Source of the DNA: a virus
Lineage: Duplodnaviria > Caudoviricetes
IMG/VR virus record: IMGVR_UViG_3300024254_000008
Coordinates: 4,191-68,190 of that record
Direction: 5' to 3' (one strand)
Length of the DNA: 64,000 bases
Shown piece after piece: positions 42,875-64,000 of the stretch. The notes under the pieces are model-generated. The model ran no database searches, was not told where the DNA came from, and worked only from the letters and a program-made list of their open reading frames with translations. Position 1 is the stretch's first letter. Each line of letters opens with the position of its first letter. Position numbers and translations under genes: made by a program.

Positions 42875-42920
42875 ATTTCCGCTAATATAGTAAAGCACTA
42901 ATTTAGTCACGGTTTCGTGA
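42875..42920. promoter_or_regulatory. Composite site: 15-bp motif plus TCACG-N4-CGTGA palindrome
   Basis: ATTTCCGCTAATATA (42875-42889); TCACGGTTTCGTGA (42907-42920). Confidence 0.65.
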
Positions 42921-48136: not shown

Positions 48137-49024
48137 CTAGAACGGTATGTCATCTCCATCATCGCGGCGCGGCGGCGGCTCATAGCCCGCACGATCCGGC
48201 GCAGACGTCGTCGCCGATCCTTCGTCGGTCACGTCGCGGACCGGAGCAGCCATCCGCATCACGCCATCTTCGACCGCCTTGCGCACTTCCTGAGCGCGTT
48301 CCCAGCATCGCCGGCCGTTCTTCTGGGCGAGCGTCAGGCCGACCGGCTCGATCTTCCAGCCGGGATAGGTCTTGTCGCCCTCGCCCTCGGTCACGGTCGT
48401 CAGCTTGTAGAGGACGGCATAGATCGGAGCGGTGAAGGGACCGTTCGGCCCCTCGAATTCGACGGCATCGATCAGACCGTTCCAGCGCCGGGACTTCTTG
48501 GCCTGCGTCGAAGCGAGCGGCAGGACGACGGGTCGCACGCTGCCGTTGTTGTAGAGCAGGCAGTAATAGGTCGGCACCATGTTGATATCGTTGCCCTCGG
48601 TCGTGATGCGAGGAAATCCCTCGCCATCGTCGCGACCGCGCTTCTGGCTCGCCTGATACTTGCTGTGGTCGGTGAACCACTGCTTGACCAGCTTGCCGCG
48701 CGACCGCTTCTCGCCGCCGCGCTCGATCTTCACTTCCCATTCGGTGACGTGATCCTCGTATTTGCACGGGATCACGAACGCCTCCTGCATCGGACGGAGC
48801 GTCAGGTTGTCGATGATGTCGCCGACCCGCGCCGAGTCGATGAAGCCGGCGTGGCCGCGCTTCACGTAACCGGACGTGCCCTGAACGATGCTCAGGTACG
48901 GCACGATCATCTGGCGCATGTCGAACGTCTCGGTGCCGGTGCGGGCACCTTCGACCATCAACGCCATGTCCTCGACGCTAAGCGGCGAAGTGTTCCCTGC
49001 AGTCGTCAGTTCGTTATCGGGCAT
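48137..49024 (-). CDS. Single-stranded DNA-binding-like protein
   Basis: PYLSIVQGTS..VLPLASTQAKKSRRWN; acidic DDIPF tail. Confidence 0.65.
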   Translation of the reverse strand: MPDNELTTAGNTSPLSVEDMALMVEGARTGTETFDMRQMIVPYLSIVQGTSGYVKRGHAGFIDSARVGDIIDNLTLRPMQEAFVIPCKYEDHVTEWEVKIERGGEKRSRGKLVKQWFTDHSKYQASQKRGRDDGEGFPRITTEGNDINMVPTYYCLLYNNGSVRPVVLPLASTQAKKSRRWNGLIDAVEFEGPNGPFTAPIYAVLYKLTTVTEGEGDKTYPGWKIEPVGLTLAQKNGRRCWERAQEVRKAVEDGVMRMAAPVRDVTDEGSATTSAPDRAGYEPPPRRDDGDDIPF

Positions 49025-49893: not shown

Positions 49894-50132
49894 CAGGCGT
49901 TAGCCAGCAATGCCTTGACGGCCGGGCTCTCGGCGATCTTCGCCGCTCGCGCCTTGTCGATAGCCGGCTTTTGCTTGAGCCGGTCGAGCGCCCGCGTATC
50001 GTTGAACCGCACGATGTGCCGCGCCGTCGTGATGAGTTTGTTCACCCGAGTCCGGTCGAACTGGCTCGTGTAATAGCCCTTGTGTCGGCTGGACTGACGC
50101 TGGTTCGCCTTGTTCATTGCGCCCGCAGGCAT
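49893..50132 (-). CDS. Small basic protein
   Basis: RBS; coupled stop/start. Confidence 0.55.
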   Translation of the reverse strand: MPAGAMNKANQRQSSRHKGYYTSQFDRTRVNKLITTARHIVRFNDTRALDRLKQKPAIDKARAAKIAESPAVKALLANA

Positions 50133-50150
50133 GGCAATTCCCCTTTGATG

Positions 50151-50195
50151 AGCAGAGGAGCGGGACCGCTTGTTAGGCGGTCCCGCTCCTCTGCT
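50151..50195. terminator. 19-bp perfect hairpin (terminator or RNase III site)
   Basis: AGCAGAGGAGCGGGACCGC-TTGTTAG-GCGGTCCCGCTCCTCTGCT. Confidence 0.6.
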
Positions 50196-50196
50196 G

Positions 50197-50778
50197 TTAC
50201 TGGTCTTCCGACTCGATGGGCTGCGGCTCGCCGTTGACCGGATCGTCGTCGTTGAGACGGTTGCCGGTGTCGGCCGACATGATGACCGTGCAAGTGTAGG
50301 TCGTCACGTTATCGAGATCGACCGTCTTGCCGACCCGAACTTCGCGCACCTCGTGAAGGACGATATCCTGCCCTTCGGGCAGTGAGCCCGTGGCCCGGAC
50401 CCCACCGGCATTCAGCAGGACCACGCGGTGCGGCATGACGGTCAACCAGCCATAGCCGTAGCCACCGACCGATCCGGTCGGTGCCGCCGGATAGCCTTCG
50501 GCGGACAGTTGTCCGGCATGCTGCTCGACCATGAAGCACCACCGGGCGGCGGCGGCCGGATAGCCACGCAGGAACTTAGACGCCCGCTGCGCCGTCATGT
50601 AGGACATGACAAGGCGCTGACCCAAGGTCATCGCATCAACGCCGGCCTCACCGGCACGGGAGATCGAAGCGCGGGCCGCGCCGCGCAGCACGTCGGCGAC
50701 GGCCGCTCGGGCACCCAAGATCATGGAGTCCACCGGACGGCCCAACTGGATCGGGAAGGAGATGTGACGGAAAGTCAT
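50197..50778 (-). CDS. Hypothetical protein
   Basis: RBS AGAGG. Confidence 0.6.
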   Translation of the reverse strand: MTFRHISFPIQLGRPVDSMILGARAAVADVLRGAARASISRAGEAGVDAMTLGQRLVMSYMTAQRASKFLRGYPAAAARWCFMVEQHAGQLSAEGYPAAPTGSVGGYGYGWLTVMPHRVVLLNAGGVRATGSLPEGQDIVLHEVREVRVGKTVDLDNVTTYTCTVIMSADTGNRLNDDDPVNGEPQPIESEDQ

Positions 50779-51046
50779 TGGCTTGTTCCTCTGATTAAGG
50801 GCGTTTGGTTTTCAAGCGACGCGCCCGTGTCCGCCGCTGATTGGAAGATGGCACGATCCGGAAACGCTTGCAACGGCAAAATAGCGTTTCCGGTAAAATA
50901 GTTTAATCCGGATGCGGCGACCGACGACGCGATGGTCGGGGAGCCACCGCTTCCCGCGCTTCCTGCATCACATCGCGCAACACATCGGCTACCGGCAGCG
51001 ATGGTCGTCTCGTCCGTGGCGGCTGGTCTCGGTGACGATCTTCGCT

Positions 51047-51295
51047 TCAACCGGCCTCGACATTGAACACCTCCACGATACGCATCTCGGATTTATGGCC
51101 CTTGTCGACGAACAGGTCAGCGAACGCCTGAGCTTCGCACCATGTCGACCACTGGAGCGCCTTGTCTCCCTTGGTCGTGCGGACCTTGCGCCACACGACC
51201 TGATCGCCCTTGGTCGTGCGGACCTTGCGCCACACGACCTGATCGCCCTTGGCCACCGAATAGACCGGGACGAGTCGCTCGATCATGAACGACAT
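51047..51295 (-). CDS. Hypothetical protein with 13-aa internal duplication
   Basis: KGDQVVWRKVRTT twice. Confidence 0.6.
   Translation of the reverse strand: MSFMIERLVPVYSVAKGDQVVWRKVRTTKGDQVVWRKVRTTKGDKALQWSTWCEAQAFADLFVDKGHKSEMRIVEVFNVEAG
51168..51252. repeat. Perfect 39-bp tandem duplication (in frame)
   Basis: CCCTTGGTCGTGCGGACCTTGCGCCACACGACCTGATCG twice plus CCCTTGG. Confidence 0.95.
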
Positions 51296-51297
51296 GA

Positions 51298-51645
51298 TCA
51301 GCCCTCCGGGAACGGCTTCGGCGTGACGAAGGCGGCCAGCACCTCATGCTCCTCGGCCACGGCCAGCCCGGCTGCCGCCATTTTCGCCGCAGCCTTGCGC
51401 AGCGTCTCATAGACGTCGTGCATCATCTCGATACGACGACACAGGTTGTCCCGCTCCCCGTCGTGTTCCTCGGTGCCATAGATCAGCGCCACGACGGTTT
51501 CGCCAACGCCCTCGATGCGACGGCCATAGTTGGCCTCGTCGTCGGTCGCACCGTGCAGCACCTTGCCTGCACGCATCATGTCCAAGTCCATCATGCTGGC
51601 GCTGGGGAAGGGACTGTCGTCCCGCGTATCGATAATGTCGACCAT
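51298..51645 (-). CDS. Hypothetical protein
   Basis: RBS AAGGAG. Confidence 0.6.
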   Translation of the reverse strand: MVDIIDTRDDSPFPSASMMDLDMMRAGKVLHGATDDEANYGRRIEGVGETVVALIYGTEEHDGERDNLCRRIEMMHDVYETLRKAAAKMAAAGLAVAEEHEVLAAFVTPKPFPEG

Positions 51646-51700
51646 GATTGGCTCCTTCGTTGGATCGATTTGAAGAAGATCGTCTATTTTGGCGGAAATG

Positions 51701-53008
51701 TCAATCGGCGACTTCAGACGCCGGCATTTGCGCCGGAACATCGATATGTCCATTGTAATAGTGCAGCGCTTCGGCGAAAAGCTGACCGCGATGCTCGCGG
51801 AGCCAATCTAGATCGATGCGCCCGACATGGACCGGCCAGAAGCGCCGGCCGCCCGTATCATCGTTGTGCCAATCGCGGTTGTTCGTCGTTCCGGCAAAGA
51901 CGGCAGTCCGTTTGTGATCCGCCGCCAGCCGGCCGAACGGCACGCGAAAGTGATCGATGCGCGTGCTCAGCACCGCCTTGATCTTGGCCGATCCGTGCTT
52001 GCTGGAAATGATCGAATGAAGCTCCTGAATCTCGAAGACCAGCGCGCCGTGAAGCTCCTGCAGGAAGTCTTTGGCATCGACGCCAGACGATGCCGCGCGA
52101 TACCAGCTACCGCCCAGCACCTCCAGCGCGCTCGACTTCATCTTGCCCTGTCCGCCGATCAGCACGGGCATCGTGTCGACCTTGGAGCCTGCCTCCATGA
52201 TGCGAGCGACCATCGAGATCATCCAGCACCGACCGGCTTCCCGATTGAACCGTGTGTTCATCGCGCCGAACCCGCGATGAAACAAGGAAGTAAGACGCTG
52301 CTCACCATCCCATTGCTGTTGTAGCAGCCAATCGCGCGGCTCATTGCGTACATCGAAATGGGCCACATGCTGGATGAGCCGCTGAACCTGCATTTCGGTC
52401 ATCTTGATCAGGCGCTTGTCGCTTTCGTGGAGCCACGTCGTGATGCTGTCGGCCAATGAGTCATCGAGCGCCATGGCGGGCTGCATCGAGCCGTCATGCG
52501 TGCCGTTCCAATCGGCATAGCAACGCTTGTGGAAATCGTCGTACCAGATGCGGCCACCTCGTTGCGTGCGGAGCAGGCCGATGGCGATGAGCCGAGCGCT
52601 GTCCGTCTCGACCATTTGCTGAGGCGACATGCCGGCCGGCGTATCGACCTGAACGACATGTGTCCGTTCACGTCGACCGCGTGCAGCCCGTTGCGCTCCG
52701 ATCCGTACCACATTGGTCGCCGATTCAATCGCCTGCTGCTGGCGGATATGATTGCGCGCCCCGGAGACGTACATGTTGAAGTTGATGCCGCGCACTTCCG
52801 GAGCCCGCCAGCCTTCCAGCCCCCGTACATGCTCGCGAAGCTGCTGCAACACCACGCCTGCGCTCAACGGGTCATGAACGTGCAGGTCCAGCAACACGCG
52901 GTGCTCTTCGGCCGACAGGACAGCGGTCGGCTCGCGTGAGCCACCGGTCGCGGCCTCGAACAATCGATTCAGGATCGACGTTACCTGTTCGGCGGATGGC
53001 GCGGGCAT
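51701..53008 (-). CDS. VapE-like SF3 helicase, lacking the C-terminal winged-helix region
   Basis: MVARIMEAGSK.D.MPVLIGGQGKMKSS, FEIQEL, D.FRVPFGR, FAGTTN..DDTGGRRFWPV, QLFAEAL then a stop about 20 aa later. Confidence 0.9.
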   Translation of the reverse strand: MPAPSAEQVTSILNRLFEAATGGSREPTAVLSAEEHRVLLDLHVHDPLSAGVVLQQLREHVRGLEGWRAPEVRGINFNMYVSGARNHIRQQQAIESATNVVRIGAQRAARGRRERTHVVQVDTPAGMSPQQMVETDSARLIAIGLLRTQRGGRIWYDDFHKRCYADWNGTHDGSMQPAMALDDSLADSITTWLHESDKRLIKMTEMQVQRLIQHVAHFDVRNEPRDWLLQQQWDGEQRLTSLFHRGFGAMNTRFNREAGRCWMISMVARIMEAGSKVDTMPVLIGGQGKMKSSALEVLGGSWYRAASSGVDAKDFLQELHGALVFEIQELHSIISSKHGSAKIKAVLSTRIDHFRVPFGRLAADHKRTAVFAGTTNNRDWHNDDTGGRRFWPVHVGRIDLDWLREHRGQLFAEALHYYNGHIDVPAQMPASEVAD

Positions 53009-53104
53009 TCAGAGACGCCACGCCCAGTGCAGCACGCCGGGAATGCACAAGGCGATGATCGCCAACATGAGCACCGGCAGCATATAAGCGATTCTGCGTT
53101 TCAT
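53009..53104 (-). CDS. Small membrane peptide, 31 aa
   Basis: MKRRIAYMLPVLMLAIIALCIPGVLHWAWRL. Confidence 0.5.
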   Translation of the reverse strand: MKRRIAYMLPVLMLAIIALCIPGVLHWAWRL

Positions 53105-53859
53105 TGGTCTTCGGCCTCGGGTCCATCGTATTGTTGTGACGGGGCGGCCCGTAGCTGACGACGTCGGAGGGGCTGTCCCGCTCCTTGCGGCTCAACTCTG
53201 TTGCCGACAAACGTAGATGCCTGCATTCCAACTGTATTGATGTTGTAAACGGCTCCTTGCTGCGCAGGCGCATTCGCAATGATCGTGTGGCCGGACGGCA
53301 GTGCGTTGTTCAACTGACTCCTCAACTCAACGTCTTGCACAGGATGAGACTGACTCTGCAATGCCACGGCCTGTCCATAGACGCTGGCTGATCTGTTGGA
53401 CGCGTTATTCAGGACGTCCGCAGCAAGATGCCCAAGGTTCTCTGAAACTCGCGCCTCGAAAAAATTCCCGTTCCGGCCGCAGATTGGATGCATCCTGTTC
53501 CCTTGGGGCTCGATCCGTTCGCTGACACACGTCACGTTGAGCGGCTCGATTTCACCCGTAACCAGCGACGGGCTACCGCTTGATGGACGCGCGCAAAGCC
53601 ACGTCTCTTGTCCGCCCATCATAGGACGAGCAACGTGGCGACAATCGCGGCAGATGGGAGGAGCGGCGAGACAATTCGGACGTGGAAAATCGGATTGATG
53701 AATTCGGGGGGCAGACGACTCCGGAGCAGGAGGAAGGCACGGCGTCCCATCCAGATCAATCACGGCTCCGTTCACATTGTGGAATCGACTGACGCCGCAT
53801 CGCGTGCAACATATCGGAAGATCAAGGCTGAACGCATGGGCCTGATAACTAATCGGCAT
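53101..53859 (-). CDS. Cys-rich hypothetical protein
   Basis: CTRC and CRDC motifs; coupled to primase. Confidence 0.6.
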   Translation of the reverse strand: MPISYQAHAFSLDLPICCTRCGVSRFHNVNGAVIDLDGTPCLPPAPESSAPRIHQSDFPRPNCLAAPPICRDCRHVARPMMGGQETWLCARPSSGSPSLVTGEIEPLNVTCVSERIEPQGNRMHPICGRNGNFFEARVSENLGHLAADVLNNASNRSASVYGQAVALQSQSHPVQDVELRSQLNNALPSGHTIIANAPAQQGAVYNINTVGMQASTFVGNRVEPQGAGQPLRRRQLRAAPSQQYDGPEAEDQ

Positions 53860-54829
53860 GAGCCATCTCCCGGTCCGGCAGTGCGGCGAGCGCGCGGCGG
53901 AAGCTGCCACCGTGTTCCCATTTCACCGCCAAGGCAAACGCATCGCCCCATGCACTGCATTGCGAACTCACCCGCATCGGTGACGCTCCGACATTACCGT
54001 CCGCATCCGATTGCGAGAAGCTCACCCAGCGCTTGCCGTCCGGCAGGATGACGGTCGCTCCCTGACCATGCTGGAGCGGCGACTTCCAGCGCATCCCCTC
54101 CCGGCGATAGCCGTACGCGGCCAGCCGCTCGGCAATCGGATGCGCCTCGTTATACGCCTCGATTTTGGCCATGATCTCGGGCGGCATGGCGTTAACCCGG
54201 CGACGAGCAGCCACCTCGGCCTCGTCCTGAGCCACCCGCTCGGCCATCGTCGTAGCCATGGTCAGCAACATGCCGGTGTCGATGGGCGTACCGGCGATTT
54301 CCTGAGCCTTCCAATAGACCGCCTCGGCCGGATGACGCGGCAAGTAGAACAGGCTAGCCGCCCCGAACTTGGACGGATCGCTCACCCCGTGGCATCGTAG
54401 CTGGGCGGCAGCGGCGGCGGACAGGAACGGGTCGACCATCTGGTCGTATGGCAGGGGCGCGGCAAGGGGCAAAAGAACGCGATAGCGGGGGTCCTGTGCT
54501 GTGTGGCTATGAGTAGTCCACATCATCGCCCGAACCCGTCTGGCGGTCAGATATTCGGCCATAGCATCGAAGCTGATAGGGACTTCACCCGTCGTCGGAC
54601 TGGACTCGATATCCAACGCGATCATGGACCGCGCGATCAGGTTGGCGTTGCCCCGCACGCCGTTGAATGTTGCACAGGCCAAAGCCGGACCGTCTTTGGT
54701 CCCCGTCTCGTGACGCGAGAGCCGCTCAATCAATCGTTGCCACGTCGTCTCGACGCGGATGCCGACGTTATCACGGCTATCGCGAAAGAACGTGCAGGCA
54801 ATTGAAGCGCTAGGGGTAGTGTTCGGCAT
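53849..54829 (-). CDS. Archaeo-eukaryotic-type primase (prim-pol) domain protein
   Basis: IALDIE, WTTHSH..PRYRVLLPL, DPS....LFYLP. Confidence 0.8.
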   Translation of the reverse strand: MPNTTPSASIACTFFRDSRDNVGIRVETTWQRLIERLSRHETGTKDGPALACATFNGVRGNANLIARSMIALDIESSPTTGEVPISFDAMAEYLTARRVRAMMWTTHSHTAQDPRYRVLLPLAAPLPYDQMVDPFLSAAAAAQLRCHGVSDPSKFGAASLFYLPRHPAEAVYWKAQEIAGTPIDTGMLLTMATTMAERVAQDEAEVAARRRVNAMPPEIMAKIEAYNEAHPIAERLAAYGYRREGMRWKSPLQHGQGATVILPDGKRWVSFSQSDADGNVGASPMRVSSQCSAWGDAFALAVKWEHGGSFRRALAALPDREMAHAD

Positions 54830-55050
54830 GCCTCGACGCTCGCAAAATATGGGGTTGCGATCCGTGGTCCGGCTGCTAGTATTGCGTTTGCCCCGCTACA
54901 CCGCGCCGTCGCCACAGGTCGACCACGGTAATTGTTCGTTCCTCAAACTGCAAGGGCCGTATCATCCGATGCGGCCCTTGCTCGTTGTCGATCAATCGAT
55001 GATGCCGATCATGATCAGCGCGAAGACCACGGCGATGATGAGCGCCAGCA

Positions 55051-55308
55051 TCACGGAGCCTCGATGATCAGTTGGTAGGCGCTCTCGATGGCGGCTTCCA
55101 TGGTCGTGCCGTGGCCCATCATGACGGGGAAGTCGTGCCATCCCTGCTGACGGGGGAACGACCACCACGCCACGAATTCATGGGCGACGGGCGGATGAGA
55201 CGACATGAAATTGGCGCGAATCTGGAGCCGTAGCGTTTCTGGAGCGTATCCATGTGCCCGCGCCTTGGCACATACGGATTCGTGCAAGTGTTGAATGTCC
55301 ATGATCAT
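55051..55308 (-). CDS. Hypothetical protein
   Basis: RBS AAGGAGG. Confidence 0.6.
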   Translation of the reverse strand: MIMDIQHLHESVCAKARAHGYAPETLRLQIRANFMSSHPPVAHEFVAWWSFPRQQGWHDFPVMMGHGTTMEAAIESAYQLIIEAP

Positions 55309-55544
55309 CCTCCTTTGCGATCAATTCCTAGTCGATCCATCAAGCGGATCAATCGCTTGCCCCGCACAGCGTTGATATCGACGTGCCCCGGCTCGGGAGT
55401 GAAGCCCTTGGCTTTCGACTGGCGCGCATCGCGGCGGACCTTGCGCGCGAACGCGACCAAGGCGGTAACGATGAGGGAGAATTCGCGCTCGTCCACAGTC
55501 AGGACTCGTTGGCCATTGCTGGCGACGAACAGGGAGTCGGGCAT
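55305..55544 (-). CDS. Hypothetical protein
   Basis: RBS GGGGAG; coupled. Confidence 0.55.
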   Translation of the reverse strand: MPDSLFVASNGQRVLTVDEREFSLIVTALVAFARKVRRDARQSKAKGFTPEPGHVDINAVRGKRLIRLMDRLGIDRKGG

Positions 55545-55545
55545 A

Positions 55546-55755
55546 TCACTCCCCTTCCGGCGTGATATCCGACACCCGCACGCGATAGACGCGACCATCA
55601 GTTAGCGTCATATCGAAGAAACGCATTTCCATGACGCGTACATCATCCGGCTGGATTTCAGTAAGTCGCGCAACGTCGTCTCGGATTGCTGATGCCCGGC
55701 AGAGTCGCCGCGCAATGATCTCGGCCATCGTATAGCCGGCAGTCGTCGTAGCCAT
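55546..55755 (-). CDS. Hypothetical protein
   Basis: RBS GAGGAGGG. Confidence 0.6.
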   Translation of the reverse strand: MATTTAGYTMAEIIARRLCRASAIRDDVARLTEIQPDDVRVMEMRFFDMTLTDGRVYRVRVSDITPEGE

Positions 55756-55758
55756 GGT

Positions 55759-56259
55759 CTAGCCCTCCTCGCTCAAGTCGTCTGTTTCAATATCGCCAAG
55801 CTGGAACGCGCTGGCTCGCTCCAGCGTCCACTCGACGGTGCCTGATTCGTCCGGCATCACGACAGGGCAACGCCGGATTGCCTCGATAGGATGTTGCAGG
55901 AAGTATACCCATGCCATGGCCTGCTCGCCGTCATCCTCCACCATCACTTCCACACGACGATAGTAATCAGGATGGCCCTCCAATCGGTCCAACATGTTCA
56001 TCGTCTCGGGGTCGACCACGTATAGCTCGCCCTTCACCTTGCCGATAACATCGGCAACGCATGCCTCATGGTCGGCCGACAATGACGCCGGATCAATCAG
56101 GTACGGAAACGCCGCGCCGCTCAACATGAGATAGGGGTCTACTGTGACAGCTTCGCCCAAGGGCAACGCGTCACGCTCAGCTAAAAAGGGATAGTGATTG
56201 TGGAAGCCCTTTTTCAGACTACCATAGACGAACACGAGGGGATTGGTGGGGGAAGTCAT
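55759..56259 (-). CDS. Gamma-glutamylcyclotransferase (AIG2-like) #2
   Basis: VFVYGSLKKG..NH..GELYVV..LDRLEGHPDYYRR. Confidence 0.92.
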   Translation of the reverse strand: MTSPTNPLVFVYGSLKKGFHNHYPFLAERDALPLGEAVTVDPYLMLSGAAFPYLIDPASLSADHEACVADVIGKVKGELYVVDPETMNMLDRLEGHPDYYRRVEVMVEDDGEQAMAWVYFLQHPIEAIRRCPVVMPDESGTVEWTLERASAFQLGDIETDDLSEEG

Positions 56260-56304
56260 TGCGTGCTCCTATGGCCTGTCGGATTGCAGGCCGTTGATGG
56301 TTGA

Positions 56305-56928
56305 TTATTCTAGCGGGATTGTCAATGGTCTAACTAATCTTGCACCTCTATCGCCGCGCCAATGGCGCATGCGCAAGGTATCGAGTCGAATGCCGTACGC
56401 TTCGGCGGCTGCCATAAGTGTCATCTTGCCTTTGGGAGTTTTAACCCTGACCGTGTTTTGCTTGTTCGCAGCCTGTTGGTCGTTCGTTTCCCATCGGCAG
56501 TTTCGCGGCGTGTAATTTCCATCATTGTTCTTTCGACCAATCGAAAGGCCGGTTTGCCACGTTGGCAGCATATCGTCGCGAAAGTTAGAGAACTTGAGCC
56601 AGCGCCGACAAACTTTGATGCCGCGCGCTCCATAGTTTTTGTAACTCGGATTATTTGGATTGAAGCAAAAAGCACGCATTCGCAGCCATGCTGTATAGAC
56701 AGGATGCTGAGCGCCGTTGTGTCCAACCTTGCTCCCCATGCCGTGTGTCGTGTTTCGTGCGCTCGTAACTTCGGACACTAAACAGCCGCAACTCTTGCTG
56801 TTGCCTTGCAGCAGATGCCCGACCCAAACGGCTTTTTGAGCCCCACAATCACAACAGCAGAGCCATTGCTTGCCGCCATTCGTTGGGCGAAGAGTCGTCC
56901 AACGATGAAAGGTCTGTCCCGCAATCAT
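56305..56928 (-). CDS. HNH-like homing endonuclease
   Basis: WLCCCDCG..SKSCGC..YGARGIKVC.RW..SIGRKNNDGNYTPRNCRW. Confidence 0.85.
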   Translation of the reverse strand: MIAGQTFHRWTTLRPTNGGKQWLCCCDCGAQKAVWVGHLLQGNSKSCGCLVSEVTSARNTTHGMGSKVGHNGAQHPVYTAWLRMRAFCFNPNNPSYKNYGARGIKVCRRWLKFSNFRDDMLPTWQTGLSIGRKNNDGNYTPRNCRWETNDQQAANKQNTVRVKTPKGKMTLMAAAEAYGIRLDTLRMRHWRGDRGARLVRPLTIPLE

Positions 56929-56935
56929 TATTGCC

Positions 56936-58045
56936 TCATGCTGTCGCGGTCCGAATCATATTACCCCAGCCAAACCGCCTTGCACAGATCGGTCCTACCG
57001 ATGACATAACAGACACGGGGTCTGTAAGCAACCGTCTGCAACATGCACAGTGGCCAGTATCTTGCCCATGAGTGCGCGCGGCGGCCTGCGGATCGGATGC
57101 ACAGCCCCGGAATGCAGCAATATCGTTCGCGGTCAAAATCGCGTTTGGCGATTTGTGGAACAGATCGTTCCGGTCAATGTATCCCTTGTATGCTCCCTCA
57201 CGATAGCACAGGATCATGCCCGCGCCGCCGTTCCTGAACATCCGGCCGCTCAATTTGAACGTGACGGCCCCCAAGACCAGCCGCACCTTGCGCAGACCGC
57301 TCGCAGCAGCAGCGTCCATCGCGCGGCGAACGTTGGTTGCCTCGATAAGGAAGATATTGCATCCGGCATCCGCTGCTGATGCGAACGGTGCCGTTTCCAT
57401 CATGCGCTCGGTGCGGATGACGTCGACCATCGATGAAAGCGTCACTTGCGCGCCGTTGCGCACGTCCGACTCGGTGACGGGAACGCCATCGGGAGTCGCG
57501 CCCACGATAGGAGCGGCCGGCCGGACATGGCCATTTGGCTCCCGTATTGCAGTAACGCCTTGCCCATTCGTCATGACGACGGCCCCGTTTTCGGCCCCAC
57601 CAGACACGACGGCCGGTGCAGGCTGTGTCCGTACGTTGCGTTGCACGGAGGCCAATTGGCGGGGCGTTAAGCCGCCATAGCGGCGGCATCCGTTGATGAG
57701 GGATTGGCCAAAGTCGCCCGACGCAGGAGACAGCAGCCAAGCCGCCTCGGCCGGGTAGCGAGTCGCGAAGTCATGCCAGTTGCGGTCCGCGCGGGGCTGA
57801 CGCGACGTGTGACCGGCCGGAGTCGCGCTCAAGTCGCCGCGTTCGTTGGTCGCCAGAGTGGGCGCTGAAATGATCATGCGGGGCACATGGGGATAGCGTG
57901 GATCACGCGGCGCATAGCGTGCGCGCCGCATACCGTTGCAACCAAAGCATGCGCCTACATAAAACGATCCATCACGGCGCGTGCCGTGATACTCACCGGT
58001 CCCATTGCAACGCTGGCAGGTTGAAGTAGCGATTTCTGCTGGCAT
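56936..58045 (-). CDS. Zinc-finger protein with DUF6011-like C-terminus
   Basis: CQRCNGTG..CFGCNG; GHCACCRRLLTDPVS...VGPICA. Confidence 0.75.
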   Translation of the reverse strand: MPAEIATSTCQRCNGTGEYHGTRRDGSFYVGACFGCNGMRRARYAPRDPRYPHVPRMIISAPTLATNERGDLSATPAGHTSRQPRADRNWHDFATRYPAEAAWLLSPASGDFGQSLINGCRRYGGLTPRQLASVQRNVRTQPAPAVVSGGAENGAVVMTNGQGVTAIREPNGHVRPAAPIVGATPDGVPVTESDVRNGAQVTLSSMVDVIRTERMMETAPFASAADAGCNIFLIEATNVRRAMDAAAASGLRKVRLVLGAVTFKLSGRMFRNGGAGMILCYREGAYKGYIDRNDLFHKSPNAILTANDIAAFRGCASDPQAAARTHGQDTGHCACCRRLLTDPVSVMSSVGPICARRFGWGNMIRTATA

Positions 58046-58091
58046 GATTGCCTCCAATGCGGGGCGGAATGGCCCCGTCGCTGTTGTCGGT

Positions 58092-58126
58092 TATTTTGGC
58101 GGAATTATCCAGTCACGGTTTCGTGA
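58092..58126. promoter_or_regulatory. Composite site: 15-bp motif plus TCACG-N4-CGTGA
   Basis: TATTTTGGCGGAATT; AGTCACGGTTTCGTGA identical to 42905-42920. Confidence 0.65.
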
Positions 58127-58131
58127 GTCGA

Positions 58132-58296
58132 TCAATCAATTTGTTCTGACGCATGAAGCAAGCGCCGAATCTCGGTGTACAGATATTCCATGACACGCGG
58201 ATCGTCGTATATCCCATCGTTCACTTCCATGATGCGAATCATTCGAGCCACAATGAGCGGCGTTGCCTTTTCCGGCATAATGATATGCTTTTCCAT
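58132..58296 (-). CDS. Hypothetical protein, 54 aa
   Basis: RBS GGGAGAG. Confidence 0.5.
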   Translation of the reverse strand: MEKHIIMPEKATPLIVARMIRIMEVNDGIYDDPRVMEYLYTEIRRLLHASEQID

Positions 58297-58297
58297 G

Positions 58298-59278
58298 TCA
58301 CTCTCCCTTCGGCGCACGACGCCAGACGTTGTTCTTATCCTTGATCCAAGTCTGGCCGTTCTTTCCGGTGAACGTCGTTCCGGGCGGGTAGGGGCCGTTT
58401 GACGGTCCGGCCGGATCGCCCATGTTGAGCGCGTCGCGAATTTCATCCGGCCGCATGTCCTCGTATCGCTTTGCGCTCGCCGTCTTGTTGTGGCGCTTAC
58501 CGCTCAACATGCGGCCCGTGACCAGCGACTTGTGCGGACCCTGATAGGACGATGCCGTACCGTTGCCTTCGGGGATGAAATCGTCCCTCATGCTGGCCGT
58601 GCCGTTGCCGTTGATGCGGTCCGGAAACGTCGCTTTGTACCAGTCGTCAAAGTCAAAGCGCTTATCGCTGTATGTCGTCGTCGACCAACGCCTCACCTTT
58701 TGGTTCTTCCGGGCGAAGTCCCGCGCATGACGCAAGCGACGCGTATCCATCTGCCAGTCCGTGTAGCCCTGCAGGCAGATGCCATAGTAGCGTTCGGATG
58801 GCGCCTCCGGCTCGTTGTTCCGCTTGATGTAGGTAAAGCATCGCACTGCCTCGCCGTTCAATTCGACAGTGACCAGATAGCGTTCATAGGACCGGCCGAG
58901 TCCCTCGTACCGGTCAAGCGTCGCAATGTCGGCGGCAGTCAGACGATACACGCCAATCGGGACGGTCGCCGCGTCATCCTCAACGATGCCCAAGTGATAG
59001 GCGAACACAAGACGGGCGCTGCGCAAGGTGCCAGCCCCGACAGGATCGGCCATCGGGCAACGGCCCGCCATCTGCTCAAGGGCCAGATTCGATCCGTACG
59101 CCGCATAAGGATAGCGCGCGGCGATATGGTCAGGCGTCTTGTGCGACACGCGCACCCAGCGCAGCGGGATAGCGATAGTCACGGCGTCAGGTGTGGGAAG
59201 GGGCAAGCGTGGACCGATGAAATCGTCCGATGGTCCGCTCGTCTGTTCGTCAATCTGTGGCGTCTTTTCGTTGGCCAT
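58298..59278 (-). CDS. Gamma-glutamylcyclotransferase-like #3 with C-terminal extension
   Basis: YAAYGSNL..QMAGRCP..GVYRLT..LDRYEG..YER. Confidence 0.88.
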   Translation of the reverse strand: MANEKTPQIDEQTSGPSDDFIGPRLPLPTPDAVTIAIPLRWVRVSHKTPDHIAARYPYAAYGSNLALEQMAGRCPMADPVGAGTLRSARLVFAYHLGIVEDDAATVPIGVYRLTAADIATLDRYEGLGRSYERYLVTVELNGEAVRCFTYIKRNNEPEAPSERYYGICLQGYTDWQMDTRRLRHARDFARKNQKVRRWSTTTYSDKRFDFDDWYKATFPDRINGNGTASMRDDFIPEGNGTASSYQGPHKSLVTGRMLSGKRHNKTASAKRYEDMRPDEIRDALNMGDPAGPSNGPYPPGTTFTGKNGQTWIKDKNNVWRRAPKGE

Positions 59279-59318
59279 ATTCGGCTCCTGTTCTGGATTG
59301 ATGGGGGGAAGTGCGCGC

Positions 59319-60497
59319 CTAAGCGGCGCGCACCGCGTTCGGCTCGTCGGACGACTGGAACGTATCGCGACGGTCGTTGCACCATGCCAGCGTTTCGACA
59401 CTCAATCCGGCCGCGAAGTCATAGGCGATGAAATCGCGCGCCATGATGCGGGCCGGCTGTACGACGGGCGCGGGGGCTGGCGTTGGGATCACAACGGCTG
59501 GCATGGTGACGGTGGACGCGGCGAACACGCGCTCGCGTGCGATAGGCAACGCATGCGCGCCGGCCAGCAGATAGACCGGTCCCGCGTCGCTGCGCTGGGT
59601 AATCAAGCCAGCACCATGCCGGCGGAAACCCGTCATGATGCGGCGTAGCACGTTATCAGCAATGCCGTTGGCTTGCGCCCATTGAGCCGTGATCACGCCA
59701 TGTTGGCAGAGTTGATCCATGGCGCGGTCCGCATCACTGCCACGGCGCATCGTGGGAACGCGACCGCCGATGGTTTGGGGAACCAAGACGGGGCGGGGCG
59801 GGGCGACGGGAGGCGGAACGGGGACCGCTCCGAACGTGATGCCAACGGCACGGCGCGCCACTTCGTCGATCATCTCCTGCAGGAAGCGAACCCAGCCGAT
59901 CACCTTGCCCGGATTGCATGTCGCTGCAGCCTGCCGGAATTCGATACGCGCATCGTCGCCCTGCGCGCTGATCCACGCCACGTTCGTGGCGCTGTAGCGC
60001 CCGCTGATGGGGAAACCGTCTTGATTCCGGTCAATGTTCCCAGCCAACGATTGAAAGACTGCCGAACCGAGCGGCTGACAAAAGTTATTGTTGCGCCGGG
60101 ACGGCGGCAACATGGCGTTGATTTGGGGCTGGAGTTGAGCGTAGCGCAGGACGCTCAATTGCCGAACCCGCATCGGCAAATCCGAGACGTTCACATGCAC
60201 ATGAAAGCCACACGACCGATTGACGCCAAAGCGAGCGGTTTCCAGCGCGCCCACGGCGAGAGTGATTTCGTTATAGGATTCCTCGCGGCCGGGAAGGATG
60301 CGCGAAACCACTTCCACGCCACGGTCATACGGCTGTATCGATCCATCCGGCTTGGCCTGCCAAACCTCATACTCGCGACCGAAATGGCTGTTATTACGCA
60401 TCTCGATTCCCGTGGTGCGAACGGTGGCGTTCGCATGAGCGAGTGGTGACTGGCCGGCCGGGGCGACCATTTCAAGCTCAATGCCGAATTTACGCAT
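59319..60497 (-). CDS. Putative amidoligase (COOH-NH2 ligase, Amidoligase_2-like)
   Basis: FGIELE, DGSI, EVVSRIL, SCGFHVHV, RY...N, IEFRQ. Confidence 0.9.
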   Translation of the reverse strand: MRKFGIELEMVAPAGQSPLAHANATVRTTGIEMRNNSHFGREYEVWQAKPDGSIQPYDRGVEVVSRILPGREESYNEITLAVGALETARFGVNRSCGFHVHVNVSDLPMRVRQLSVLRYAQLQPQINAMLPPSRRNNNFCQPLGSAVFQSLAGNIDRNQDGFPISGRYSATNVAWISAQGDDARIEFRQAAATCNPGKVIGWVRFLQEMIDEVARRAVGITFGAVPVPPPVAPPRPVLVPQTIGGRVPTMRRGSDADRAMDQLCQHGVITAQWAQANGIADNVLRRIMTGFRRHGAGLITQRSDAGPVYLLAGAHALPIARERVFAASTVTMPAVVIPTPAPAPVVQPARIMARDFIAYDFAAGLSVETLAWCNDRRDTFQSSDEPNAVRAA

Positions 60498-60774
60498 GGT
60501 CAGACTCCCCTGTGGCAGTGAGAACAGAAACCAGCTTGTCTGCAACAAAGAGCCGAGTCGCTCCGTTCCCGAATCGAACTTGAATGGCTTCTACGCCGAG
60601 CGATTTCATCCGGCGCACTGCCGATATCTTGGCAACGAGCCAAAAGGCTTCTTGCGTTCCTGCGAACATGACGCGGTCATTGCATGTGAGATCGCGCGCC
60701 TTGACGTAGCGATGCGCGTACGTTGGCGATGGCTGCGCGGTGGCGTGATCTTTGGCGGGATTGGCGATGGGCAA
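60490..60774 (-). CDS. Hypothetical protein, first gene of the early block
   Basis: TTG start after AAAGGAG. Confidence 0.5.
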   Translation of the reverse strand: MPIANPAKDHATAQPSPTYAHRYVKARDLTCNDRVMFAGTQEAFWLVAKISAVRRMKSLGVEAIQVRFGNGATRLFVADKLVSVLTATGESDHA

Positions 60775-60845
60775 AGGGACGACTCCTTTGGACGCACGGA
60801 ATTGTGCAAGCCGTTTGTCCCATATCCGGCATCCTGCCACAACAT

Positions 60846-60887
60846 TAAATTGGCGGAAACAGACTGTGATATCTCACGAACGCGTGA
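60846..60887. promoter_or_regulatory. Composite site: 15-bp motif plus TCACG-N4-CGTGA
   Basis: TAAATTGGCGGAAAC (60846-60860); TCACGAACGCGTGA (60874-60887). Confidence 0.6.
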
Positions 60888-61182
60888 ACGGCGCATGCCG
60901 GGGATTGCGCCCGGCATGGATTATACGCAACGCGCGCCCGTGCTTTGTTCCGGCGCTGCGCTAGGGCGGTTTGGATTGGCGCAATTTTATTTCCGCTAAA
61001 ATAGAATCGTCGCTAGGGCCGGAAATCTGACCGTGGGATAGGGTCGGGCGTTTTCCGGTAGGTCCGTGCCAGACGATGACGAGTTTGCAAACGTTCTGGT
61101 TTTTATCCACCGAAAAGGGCGTCAAGTGTATAAGCGATCACAGTTGCGTTACCGCGCCGTTTTGCAGGCCAGCCGCCGGGAC

Positions 61183-61198
61183 TGTTTCACGTGAAACA
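61183..61198. promoter_or_regulatory. parS: parS site 1 (perfect chromosomal consensus)
   Basis: TGTTTCACGTGAAACA. Confidence 0.9.
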
Positions 61199-61242
61199 TC
61201 GCAGCGTGTATATTGGCGGAACACAACGTCACAGAGGATGAC

Positions 61243-61824
61243 ATGCCGGAACAGATTGACCGATTTGCCAACGATCCACGACGGCACTTGCCGAACGACC
61301 TTGAGTCGGTGCAGCGGCGACAGGCCGAGGCGATGGCGCGAGGCGAGCCGTATTACCCGACACCATGGGAATGTCAGGAGATGGGCAAGTGGTGGAACGT
61401 GCCGGAAGATGAGCAGGCCGAATTGATCGCGGCCGAGACGGCCGAGCATCCATGGCAAGAGATCATCGAGCCGAGACTGGCCGAGCGAGGATTATACCAT
61501 GGGCGACAAGACGAGACGCCTGCGCCGTGGGATGGATCACTCGCGGACAGTGCGAATTGGGGAAACATCGTCACCAATGTTCGCATTGGCGTGCTATGGC
61601 TCAAGCTGAATCCGGACAGTCTTGGGCGCGGCACGGCGAACACAAAAGCAATCAGCGCGGTTATGCGAAAGCTCGGCTGGGAGCTTAAAAGAACACGGGT
61701 TGAAGGCATGGCAAGCCGTCCAAACGTGTGGACTCATGTGGAAAGCATTGGGGACGAAATCCGGAATGTAGCAGATAATGTGCGAAATGATAGCCGCACG
61801 GATAATGATGATATTCCTTTTTAG
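61243..61824 (+). CDS. VapE C-terminal (winged-helix) fragment as a separate ORF
   Basis: KWWNVPEDEQ..HPWQEII..AISAVMRKLGWELKRTR..W; ends DDIPF; RBS GAGG. Confidence 0.7.
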   Translation: MPEQIDRFANDPRRHLPNDLESVQRRQAEAMARGEPYYPTPWECQEMGKWWNVPEDEQAELIAAETAEHPWQEIIEPRLAERGLYHGRQDETPAPWDGSLADSANWGNIVTNVRIGVLWLKLNPDSLGRGTANTKAISAVMRKLGWELKRTRVEGMASRPNVWTHVESIGDEIRNVADNVRNDSRTDNDDIPF

Positions 61825-61859
61825 GACGCTGAAATGACTCAATTCGGACATAATTGAGA

Positions 61860-62138
61860 AGGGACAGAATCATTGGGGACGGGATATAGGGACAAATTGG
61901 TGCCCGGTTTATATGGCTGTTCACTCTGTCCACAATGGTCCTAATGAATCTCCAACCTTAGACGCTATGCCACTACCAGCACCGTAATGTATATCCCCTT
62001 AACATGTAGGGATATGTGTGAGTGTGATTCACATGTATATACTGGAGCGACGATTCATTAGGGACATTATGGTCCATTAGGGACATGCAAGCGGGCGTGC
62101 GTTTTACGTGTCCATAATGGCTTGAAGGAGAAGGGACA
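61860..62138. other. Candidate replication origin
   Basis: AT-richer non-coding region; repeated AGGGACA; inverted repeat ATGGTCCTAATGAATC (61935-61950) / GATTCATTAGGGACAT (62052-62067); internal palindromes. Confidence 0.55.
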
Positions 62139-62140
62139 GG

Positions 62141-62776
62141 ATGCCAGCCGTTTATCCACCCATTGCACCGCGCGGACCGTCGAGCGATAGCCCCGCGAAC
62201 GGGGCGCCGTCGCCGAGCGACTCTTTCAACCCGCGCGTGCCGACTGTCTCACGTGAAACATCGGACGACGCTGGACAGGGCCAGCGCCTTGCCGCGCTCG
62301 AACGCGATCCGTCGACGTTCGTTGACGCGCATCATCCGATCCGCGATGCCGTTGCCATCGCCCTACTCAAGCCGGCGGGCGAATTGATCAAGCGTCATGC
62401 CGCGCGCCAACGGATGATGAAAGAGGCAATCAAGGGGCCGCTGGATAGCGATGATCCAACGGAGCGGCCAATGACACTGGCCAATGACGACGGGCTGCCA
62501 GCCATTCTCGCCATGGCCGAGACACAGGTAGCAATGGCGTTGCTCGGCGATGCCAAGGCATTCAATGCCGTCGCTGATCGCGTCGAAGGCAAGGCGGGCC
62601 TACGCAAGGCTGATCTTGATGCCGAGACGGAAGCACAGCGCCAGCGCGTGCGTGGTACGATTGAAGAGCTTGTCCGTGAGATGGGTGAGCGGCGCAATGC
62701 GCAACGGCGCGCCATCGATGCCGACGTTGTGGACGTCGATGTTGTTTCACGTGAAACACTCGGCCGTGAAACGTGA
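62141..62776 (+). CDS. Terminase small subunit-like protein
   Basis: AETQVAMALLGDAKAFNAVADRVEGK helix pair; RBS AAGGAG. Confidence 0.6.
   Translation: MPAVYPPIAPRGPSSDSPANGAPSPSDSFNPRVPTVSRETSDDAGQGQRLAALERDPSTFVDAHHPIRDAVAIALLKPAGELIKRHAARQRMMKEAIKGPLDSDDPTERPMTLANDDGLPAILAMAETQVAMALLGDAKAFNAVADRVEGKAGLRKADLDAETEAQRQRVRGTIEELVREMGERRNAQRRAIDADVVDVDVVSRETLGRET
62245..62260. promoter_or_regulatory. parS: parS site 2 (one mismatch), inside the terS-like gene
   Basis: TGTCTCACGTGAAACA (encodes VSRET). Confidence 0.8.
62743..62758. promoter_or_regulatory. parS: parS site 3 (perfect), inside the terS-like gene
   Basis: TGTTTCACGTGAAACA (encodes VSRET). Confidence 0.9.
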
Positions 62777-63520
62777 CGCCTTGCGCGGCATACCAGTAAT
62801 GGTATGGGTTATGTGACGGTGCGGTATCCCGATACTAACTCATTGTTAAATCACGTTAATATAATTTCCATAATGACGGTTATACGATGATGCGTGCGCG
62901 TGCATGTTGACGCTGTCCACATCGCGCCTTGTCACTGCCTAGATGAGCCTATCCTGCCAGTGTCTAGATGAGCATGGGGGTAGAGCCTTTTGGCGGAATT
63001 TTTTTGTGGGTCCCATATTGGGTCCCCCGCACCTGCGGGCTTGCACCCTGTGTAGACTCGCCGGTCATCTATCCTTGATCTGCTCCAGCGAATCGCTTAG
63101 GGTCCCCTCTATGGCGGCGGCACGGGAGCGAACGTGCGCTTAATGTGATGGTCGAGAGGGTTACTATCGGAGTCCTTGTCCGTTCGTGTGGGTGTTGCCT
63201 GAAACTTGTCCTGCCCCCGCATGCACGACGGAACAGCCCGGCACACTGTCTCGGTTACAGGCAAGGGAAGGTTGGGCGGCGATCACGGCCGAAGGCCCAC
63301 AGTGCCGGGGTAGCGTCCGGTCCGCCATTGATATTGATCTGCGAATTGTTTAGGGTCCCCTTTGGCGGATGGGTATGCACCCAAGCAGACAACAGCCGAG
63401 ATCGTCAAGAGCGGGTAGCCGGGTTTCCTTCACGTGCTGCGGTCCGCGACGCCCAAGGAGGAAATGGCGCACCTCTCCGCCGCACTTGCTATTCTGTCGG
63501 AATCGACGTAGCTTTCCGGC
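62777..63520. other. Long non-coding region, candidate pac / genome-end region
   Basis: No credible ORF; repeated GGGTCCC; T-tract; directly after the terS-like gene. Confidence 0.4.
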
Positions 63521-63721
63521 ATGCCCAACATCTCCAACAAGTACACCGTCGATGTCGACCTGACGCGAAACGACGACGATCTGTGCGACGGCCTGCCGTG
63601 GGACGTCCTCGTGAGGTTTGCCCATATCAAGTGGCTGCTGCAGTACGAGCGGCGCGTCAAAAAGCTGGAAGAGCTCAACGCCTTGATCGCGCGGACGGGG
63701 CTCATCAAGCCGTTTCACTGA
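63521..63721 (+). CDS. Hypothetical protein
   Basis: ATG; coupled to the next ORF by TGATG. Confidence 0.55.
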   Translation: MPNISNKYTVDVDLTRNDDDLCDGLPWDVLVRFAHIKWLLQYERRVKKLEELNALIARTGLIKPFH

Positions 63722-64000
63722 TGACCCGCCACGGCATCGTCATCCCGATCCCCGACCTGACACCGCCGCTGGATTGCCGGGGCGGTCCGGCGTTCTGCGC
63801 TGTGTGCAACGCCGAGATGATCGAGATCGAGGAACTGGCGCTCGGGCTGTCAGCCGGTCATGAACGGCGCATGGCGCATCAGTGCGGTGAGAGCCGGTTT
63901 GTCAGTGCCGACGACTTGAATGCGATCTGGCTGCGCCGGACCTATCAGCGGGCGCAGTTCCGGACCGATGCGATCCGCATGATCAAGCTGCGGGCCAATG
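63721..64000 (+). CDS. Hypothetical Zn-binding protein, truncated by the window end
   Basis: MTRHGIV..CAVCN..HQCG..; open to position 64000. Confidence 0.5.
   Translation, partial: MTRHGIVIPIPDLTPPLDCRGGPAFCAVCNAEMIEIEELALGLSAGHERRMAHQCGESRFVSADDLNAIWLRRTYQRAQFRTDAIRMIKLRAN

Follow-up and report, generated by a model that had tools for sequence, protein, structure and literature searches.

How a phage comes to carry a single helicase gene in two pieces, 9.6 kb apart, on opposite strands and on either side of a divergent intergenic region, is the question raised by positions 51701-61824 of the stretch of DNA analysed here (the window; 64,000 nucleotides, bases 4191-68190 of the 68,190-bp IMG/VR record IMGVR_UViG_3300024254_000008). 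It derives from a soil phage with a genomic guanine-cytosine (GC) content of ~59%. The helicase belongs to the VapE/Rep type, named after the Rep proteins of Staphylococcus aureus pathogenicity islands (SaPIs), and its ATPase part and its C-terminal domain (CTD) are found in separate open reading frames (ORFs). A first-pass annotation of the letters alone had noticed the broken gene and had offered three explanations, i.e. a naturally split two-subunit helicase, a switch operated by inversion of 9.6 kb, and a chimera of assembly or amplification. The data presented below support the first of them, and we consider it probable that the locus reflects a fixed, conserved fission of a self-loading helicase-initiator into two separately encoded subunits.

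51701-53008, minus strand: N-half of the VapE/Rep-type helicase (motor subunit, 435 amino acids), comprising the N-terminal region and the P-loop ATPase core
61243-61824, plus strand: C-half of VapE (CTD subunit), 193 amino acids from ATG 61243 or 203 amino acids from TTG 61213

The minus-strand ORF matches the Pfam VapE-like domain (PF05272) with 201 bits (gathering cut-off 25), and the match covers profile positions 3-195 of 217 (up to 201 in another search); the PHROG DNA helicase and primase families are likewise matched up to residue ~420 only. The protein reads ...QLFAEALHYYNG, continues with 15 unrelated residues and terminates at 51701-51703 with a TGA that sits within a TTGACA hexamer. 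Homology to fused relatives ends around Y418-G420 (codon 51749-51751), and the 15-residue tail (51704-51748) is not conserved, so that the early stop of the ATPase half is borne out. Within the ATPase core, the P-loop (G285-S292) residues G285, Q287, G288, K291 and S292 as well as E326, E329, T375, N376, R388 and R389 are invariant in 16 split and fused relatives. The sole solved relative of the family found by sequence is SaPI1 Rep1 (7PDS; E 2.8e-50). The CTD is absent from the ATPase polypeptide, as it is in the whole clade of six N-halves described below.

The missing part is found in the plus-strand ORF. The fused VapE P0001 (594 amino acids; P numbers designate related proteins) aligns with its residues 1-421 to the minus ORF at 69% identity and with its residues 444-594 to residues 53-203 of the plus ORF at 64% identity. 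In a filter-free phmmer search of 1.8 billion representatives, full-length VapEs of 557-612 amino acids match the plus ORF from residue 57-58 (GKWW) on, which they meet at their own positions ~420-450. The VapE CTD thus corresponds to residues 58-203 of the plus ORF. Judged by these alignments, the minus and plus ORFs are two parts of a single ancestral VapE gene, and the expected continuation near 61390 on the plus strand is confirmed.

The position of the cut is informative. In close fused relatives the segments ...FAEAxxYY and GxWWxVP are connected by a variable linker of 24-40 amino acids, which is shortened to 7-12 residues in more distant fused relatives, and the break falls inside this linker between ATPase and CTD. 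The direct in-frame YYNG-KWWNVPE join obtained by inverting the segment on paper was therefore over-read, and neither this join nor the GG microhomology at its ends carries weight. Similarly, the small ORF formed reciprocally from the two leftover peptides is indeed in frame, but this follows automatically from the codon phase of the cut, which is identical in the two genes.

The C-half has no match of its own in Pfam and PHROG searches, and its architecture was deduced from alignments and a structural model.

61243-61383, plus strand: clade-specific N-terminal extension of the C-half, consensus NDPRRHLPND..SV.ARQ.EA.ARGEPYYPTPWEC
61384-61446, plus strand: ancestral GKWWNVPEDEQAELIAAET segment (residues 58-78), the predicted main docking element
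61447-61749, plus strand: winged-helix-like domain (residues 79-179), helix-helix-helix-beta-beta in the AlphaFold2 (AF2) model
61807-61821, plus strand: C-terminal D-D-I-P-F tail of the C-half, acidic and similar to the tail of single-stranded DNA-binding protein (SSB)

ATG 61243 is likely to be the start codon, a GAGGA ribosome-binding site being present at 61234-61238, 4 nt ahead of it, and the C-half is the first gene to the right of the divergent intergenic region. The extension of ~45 amino acids is kept in seven of nine stand-alone relatives, is unmatched by fused VapEs and shows no significant likeness to other ORFs of this phage or of its relative G001 (see below). The GKWWNVPEDEQAELIAAET segment, which in fused proteins follows the linker and forms part of the end of the Pfam VapE domain, contains the residues G58, K59, W61, V63 and P64 that are invariant in the stand-alone alignment; D200, I201, P202 and F203 of the tail are invariant there as well. 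An earlier model based on 10 sequences had a predicted local distance difference test (pLDDT) score of 59 and meaningless Foldseek matches. Redone with a 34-row alignment, the AF2 model reaches pLDDT values >90 over about residues 80-170 and displays helices 122-129, 134-137 and 142-153 and strands 156-160 and 171-175. Its top structural matches are without exception winged-helix (DNA-binding) domains, and superposition onto the CTD of SaPI1 Rep1 (7PDS, residues 347-470) gives a middling Z of 5.1 with a root-mean-square deviation of 3.5 over 81 aligned residues.

The layout of the locus is genuine in the sample. The phage sequence is present in one public soil metagenome run, and a Logan contig of 54,512 bp from this run spans window positions 51223-62500 with 0 mismatches and 0 gaps at ~17x word depth. 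No alternative joint at either junction was found in the Logan contigs of the run, which show the window's orientation only; such contigs drop rare variants and cannot reveal them. Since the spanning contig is free of mismatches, a chimera of assembly or amplification that conceals a true genome with intact VapE is very unlikely, to the point of being almost negligible. Such an artefact would have to be shared by a second assembler, whose contig crosses both junctions at uniform depth; it would not generate two junctions that are exactly reciprocal, nor would it explain why N-halves with their own stop codon and C-halves with their own start codon recur in other data sets, in at least 14 further diverged contigs. 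On the other side, the start of the IMG/VR record does bear a small artefact (record bases 1-21 are an inverted copy of bases 62-82), and the soil run may be the source sample itself and hence not independent DNA.

The closest relatives of the N-half indicate how old the split is. These are five proteins (P0003-P0007) of 420-434 amino acids, 73-83% identical, and together with the window's protein they form a group of six N-halves (420-435 amino acids) which all stop 15-21 residues past the FAEA motif in short, poorly conserved tails. More distant relatives (at most 69% identity) are fused and 557-621 amino acids long; the exceptions are P0012 and some fragments truncated at the N-terminus. 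A maximum-likelihood tree built on the N-half region groups the six split proteins in a single clade with a support of 100 in the SH-like approximate likelihood ratio test (SH-aLRT), the sister of which is the fused P0001 (96), and all split proteins are closer to the window's N-half than the fused ones are. On the side of the C-half, nine stand-alone relatives of 160-280 amino acids and 54-78% identity were found; in the corresponding tree nine of the ten stand-alone rows, including the window's, form one clade (SH-aLRT 88), and the stand-alone C-halves may thus stem from a single origin. The split, fixed as it is in a clade that is monophyletic and whose members have diverged, is to be regarded as old and stable and not as a rare switch. 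P0012 (440 amino acids, encoded on a 27.8-kb Logan contig) is a truncated N-half nested within the fused clade, and its sequence represents either a possible independent second fission or possibly a broken gene.

N-halves and C-halves alike have remained intact ORFs in all relatives found, whose amino-acid sequences diverge by 17-46%, and all catalytic invariants of the ATPase as well as the core residues of the CTD are kept in the split forms. This conservation bears on the notion that one half is a decaying relic, either because another helicase is used or because only one half is functional. The genome does encode an SNF2-type helicase (39734-41536) and a DNA polymerase A (42926-44875), and SaPI Reps deprived of their CTD still form hexamers (PMC9371898). 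Against it stand the intact halves of all relatives with their invariant motor motifs and CTD core residues, and CTD-less SaPI Reps fail to support replication (PMC9371898). We regard a relic as quite improbable.

A present-day reversible inversion, which would alternate between a split and a fused helicase and swap the divergent promoters, is extremely improbable. Both orientations would be transcriptionally coherent. However, the six closest proteins are all split and no fused protein exceeds 69% identity, and the contigs of the sample show a single orientation without alternative joints. In addition, neither a Resolvase (PF00239) nor a Phage_integrase (PF00589) domain was detected at E-values up to 0.1 in the entire 68,190-bp record, while the control genomes did yield matches, and no inverted-repeat pair links ~51750 and ~61390, where only GG or ATGG is shared. 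The lack of an invertase and of boundary repeats, already remarked upon in the first-pass annotation, has thereby been substantiated, and the switch proposed there is not supported.

The most instructive comparison is provided by IMGVR_UViG_3300031170_000001 (G001; 69,976 bp), the only long relative with a fused gene that was read. It was also the only hit (G001/L078) when IMG/VR was scanned with the N-half alignment, and IMG/VR scans with single sequences and with the C-half alignment yielded no close relative. No match resulted when GenBank phages were searched by megablast with 51000-62000 and by tblastn with the C-half, GTDB genome contigs contained only relatives of at most 45% identity, and one metagenome scan with P0018 returned two short contigs, P0018's own not being among them. 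The VapE of G001 (P0031) is fused and 48% identical. The genome is collinear with that of the present phage throughout, with 44 shared ORFs in the same order, and relative to both arms its replication module is oriented as in the window. In G001 the module consists of amidoligase, GGACT, a primase-like gene, VapE, the homologues of 50197 and 49321 and a Pam3 gp34-like gene, and then continues with DNA polymerase A and SNF2. The following genes and sites of the window are relevant to the comparison.

51298-51645, minus strand: gene e (115 amino acids from ATG 51645), preceded by AAGGAG at 51652-51657
51684-51698, minus strand: perfect copy of a 15-bp motif that abuts the N-half stop codon and heads the gene e cassette
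53849-54829, minus strand: primase-like gene of the same replication module, matching the N-terminal regions of PHROG DNA primase and helicase-primase families
55759-56259, 58298-59401 and 59319-60548, minus strand: GGACT/AIG2-like and amidoligase_2 genes of the leftward operon

With 56% identity, the primase-like gene corresponds to the gene that immediately precedes the fused VapE in G001. Relative to G001, the unit that has moved is not a block of 9.6 kb but the CTD-coding piece of ~0.45 kb, which now heads the rightward operon, a position occupied in G001 by a DUF6011 gene. In the present phage, that gene is found inside the leftward module, on the other strand than in G001. The position at which fused relatives encode the CTD of VapE is taken by gene e, and the gene e homologue of G001 is situated upstream of the primase-like one. 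These three units (CTD piece, gene e and DUF6011 gene) thus occupy cyclically permuted slots, no single rearrangement was found that leads from a G001-like order to that of the window, and a history of several steps is therefore indicated. We infer that the CTD-coding piece arrived either by relocation of ~0.45 kb or by two nested inversions, between which one outgroup cannot distinguish.

These findings also bear on a single ancient inversion of 9.6 kb (~51750-61390) with break points in the VapE linker and in a small ORF by the divergent promoters, which was subsequently fixed. It has the appeal that one event would provide the CTD piece with a promoter, a ribosome-binding site, a start codon and the extension and the N-half with a short foreign tail, and that both resulting operons would be coherent. 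Furthermore, inverted copies of the 15-bp motif near both ends (51684-51698, minus strand; 60990-61004, plus strand) could have promoted recombination, and the DUF6011 gene, which also crossed the divergent region and changed strand relative to G001, demonstrates that rearrangements occur here. However, the module of G001 with its fused gene has the same orientation relative to both flanks as that of the window, and a single inversion of a G001-like order would bring the CTD piece next to 50197 and the N-half next to 62141, the reverse of the observed arrangement; at least two nested inversions would therefore be needed. The postulated small ORF is without a homologue in G001, and the motif copies are not located at the break points inside the coding sequences. 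We therefore consider a single inversion unlikely; synteny speaks against it, a two-step inversion history being still compatible with the data.

If the locus encodes a helicase in two subunits, the halves should be able to associate. A complex was predicted for N-half residues 200-435 and the whole C-half, together with three controls. It obtained an interface score from aligned errors (ipSAE) of 0.84 compared to 0.00 for the best of the three controls; the mark set for this score is reached by 58 of 80 solved complexes and by 2 of 110 mismatched pairs. Between runs, at least 73% of the contacts are reproduced, and the partner pLDDT is at least 76. The modelled interface is composed of N-half residues 233-284, 378-392 and 416-424 and, on the C-half, of residues 17-55 of the extension (17, 30-41 and 46-55) and 57-77 of the GKWWNVP...ET segment, the lowest-error contacts being formed between C-half 54-63 and N-half 257-265 and 416-421. 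The model supports docking of the two halves, although the score may reflect likeness to 7PDS, because these are halves of a protein whose fused homologue is solved.

The partner in DNA is suggested by the location of the C-half gene.

61825-62140, intergenic: candidate replication origin of 316 bp, with a low GC content of 40-48% and repeats
G001 25806-26160 (L078 1702-2060), intergenic: candidate origin of G001 with TTGTCAC-type repeats and a 128-amino-acid ORF of no known family in front
60841-61242, intergenic: divergent control region that separates the leftward replication operon from the rightward C-half operon

The region directly downstream of the C-half stop codon is packed with direct and inverted repeats of the AGGGACA type. 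Five of the 14 exact AGGGAC[AG] copies of the 64 kb are found within 280 bp of it, accompanied by degenerate and inverted copies. G001 has an iteron-rich region in the same place, upstream of the homologue of 62141, with a TTGTCAC-type repeat instead; the 128-amino-acid ORF in front of it (L078 2055-2438) has no likeness to the C-half and no Pfam match. Based on its sequence properties, 61825-62140 is a candidate for the origin, immediately beside the CTD gene.

A functional framework for these observations is offered by the SaPI Reps. In these proteins, iterons located just downstream of rep are recognised by the winged helix of the CTD. The CTD is flexible relative to the ATPase, and its deletion leaves the hexamer intact but abolishes ori binding, full ATPase and helicase activity and replication in vivo (PMC9371898). 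Like SaPI1 Rep1 (7PDS) and PriRep5 of SaPI5, the split protein belongs to family PF05272, and it would share their domain logic of N-terminal tier, P-loop ATPase and flexible winged-helix CTD reading downstream iterons. The natural cut corresponds approximately to Rep1 residue 326-330, ~20 residues before the experimental CTD deletion at K346. In contrast to the SaPI Reps and the fused relatives, where the CTD is covalently attached, it is here a separate polypeptide, the promoter-proximal gene of which lies at a distance of 9.6 kb on the opposite strand, and unlike the SaPI Reps the C-half has acquired a new N-terminal extension of ~45 amino acids and ends in DDIPF.

Consistent with this framework, we propose the following scenario. 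The ancestral gene would have been cut where the variable linker connects the ATPase core with the CTD. The motor subunit (435 amino acids) would have stayed in the leftward replication operon, and the gene for the CTD subunit (193-203 amino acids), consisting of the extension, the GKWWNVP docking segment and the winged-helix domain with its acidic DDIPF tail, would have been re-sited as the first of the rightward operon, directly upstream of the iteron-rich low-GC candidate origin. The two polypeptides would reassemble non-covalently, and the CTD would act in trans to confer recognition of the origin and full activity of the motor, a role that the covalently attached CTD plays in SaPI Reps. 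Physical association of the halves and binding of the origin by the winged helix are presumed on the basis of the predicted complex, the modelled fold and the gene position.

Several observations weigh against this proposal. Both halves have been read in one genome for this phage alone, and no contig with an N-half relative equals any contig with a C-half relative in size. Two or three stand-alone C-halves (P0126, P0130 and P0131) are devoid of most of the extension, which is therefore possibly non-essential. The structural matches to winged-helix domains are only middling (Z about 5), and a minority inverted form may exist in the population.

Separate polypeptides for origin recognition and unwinding are familiar from lambda O acting with P/DnaB and from the papillomavirus E2 protein helping E1, which the split VapE resembles in outcome. 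Those partners are, however, unrelated and were never one gene, whereas here they are halves of one ancestral self-loading helicase. A replication enzyme assembled from halves encoded on opposite strands is Synechocystis DnaE. The encoding of a replication enzyme in two pieces is also reminiscent of the fractured genes and split inteins of phage replication enzymes (PMC2677866), but unlike in split-intein systems there is no intein here, and rejoining would have to be non-covalent. Fission and fusion of primase and helicase occur within the family itself, pri and rep being fused in SaPI5 and separate in SaPI1 (PMC9371898). The SaPI pri/rep splits indicate that domain boundaries tolerate both processes, and the primase-like gene (53849-54829) is likewise separate in the present phage. 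In the SaPIs whole enzymes lie side by side, whereas here the cut is within the Pfam VapE domain (at ~195 of 217) and the parts belong to divergent operons.

Three further candidates were considered and rejected. For a split intein, the tail (15 amino acids) and the extension (47-57 amino acids) add up to 62-72 residues, about half a HINT domain; neither has a Pfam or HINT match, and the +1 residue is the invariant Gly58 instead of Cys, Ser or Thr. RNA trans-splicing found no support, no Rfam match (no intron-like RNA family) being present in 50000-64000. An origin of the extension by partial duplication was considered after MAFFT had placed it on the last 45 residues of the ATPase; hmmsearch against 784 ORFs and proteins gave E >1, and hhalign a probability of 1% at a different place.

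Whether the fission is adaptive is a separate matter. The idea that an origin-reading subunit under the rightward promoter beside its own iterons allows initiation to be controlled apart from the motor must be considered tentative and rather doubtful. If it applied, a dissociable CTD would constitute a titratable initiator and replisome-recruiting subunit, could permit a switch from origin-dependent to origin-independent replication and, together with the iterons, which differ between this phage and G001, would form a portable specificity cassette. VapE/Rep-type self-loading helicases have been studied as single polypeptides in which a flexible CTD couples origin recognition to the motor (PMC9371898). 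A lineage with separate parts offers a natural system for the contribution of the CTD in trans, in which its roles in hexamer loading, ATPase stimulation, origin choice and partner recruitment via the DDIPF tail might be separated. The locus also contains a warning for annotation: as the C-half is without a Pfam or PHROG match and the N-half would be named a complete "VapE/DNA helicase", the genome would seem to be without an initiator domain. Moreover, what looks like a gene-breaking inversion in a phage contig from a metagenome can be a fission that is old and selected, and neither a switch nor an artefact.

The acidic tail is not confined to the C-half. An ending of the form D-[DE]-D-[IV]-P-F is common to the C-half, to nearly all of the fused proteins P0001-P0045 and to the Pam3 gp34-like ORF 48137-49024 (minus strand), where the tail is encoded at 48137-48154. 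By analogy with the acidic C-terminal tails of T7 helicase, which contact T7 polymerase (PMC8472574), the shared tail suggests a common docking partner, perhaps DNA polymerase A or host SSB-binding proteins.

At the other end of the N-half, a hydrophobic ORF of 31 codons (53012-53104, minus strand; MKRRIAYMLPVLMLAIIALCIPGVLHWAWRL) abuts the N-half start codon with its TGA, and the junction TGAATG suggests translational coupling of this ORF to the motor subunit. The leftward replication operon is opened by the amidoligase_2 gene and the two GGACT/AIG2-like gamma-glutamyl cyclotransferase genes listed above, and the amidoligase-GGACT pair is conserved in G001.

The final 126 nt of the record (window 63875-64000) are a copy of record bases 17-142, and the genome is therefore circular or terminally redundant with a size of ~68,048 bp, the record being labelled "linear" despite this repeat. 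Two Logan contigs (54,512 and 13,448 bp) sum to the circular genome size. The sole break of Logan contigs within 50500-62500 coincides with a 39-bp tandem duplication (92% identical) at 51160-51237 within the small ORF 51047-51295. Two contigs of 151 nt (51466-51616 and 57729-57859) with a depth of 2.3-2.7x and 9-10 differences each seem to belong to a rarer second strain of the phage in the same sample.

The 15-bp motif TTTCCGCCAAAATAG (at most 3 mismatches) occurs 14 times in the window compared to ~1 expected copy, mostly at gene starts. The divergent control region contains three TTTCCGCCAAAATAG-like copies at 60845-60859 (minus), 60990-61004 (plus) and 61208-61222 (minus); a sigma-70 promoter scan of 60400-62200 found sites no more frequently than in shuffled sequence. 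Further copies are present at 50887-50901 and 42876-42890 (both plus). The motif is also enriched in G001 (L078 3516-3934 and 7332-7346), and it directly precedes gene e in both phages, at different places of the module. A second element, the palindrome TGTTTCACGTGAAACA, which we take to be the bacterial parS consensus, has three copies (two perfect, one with a mismatch) where 0.14 are expected by chance. One of them is situated in the control region (61183-61198), 45 nt upstream of the C-half start, and the other two (62245-62260 and 62743-62758) lie inside ORF 62141-62776.

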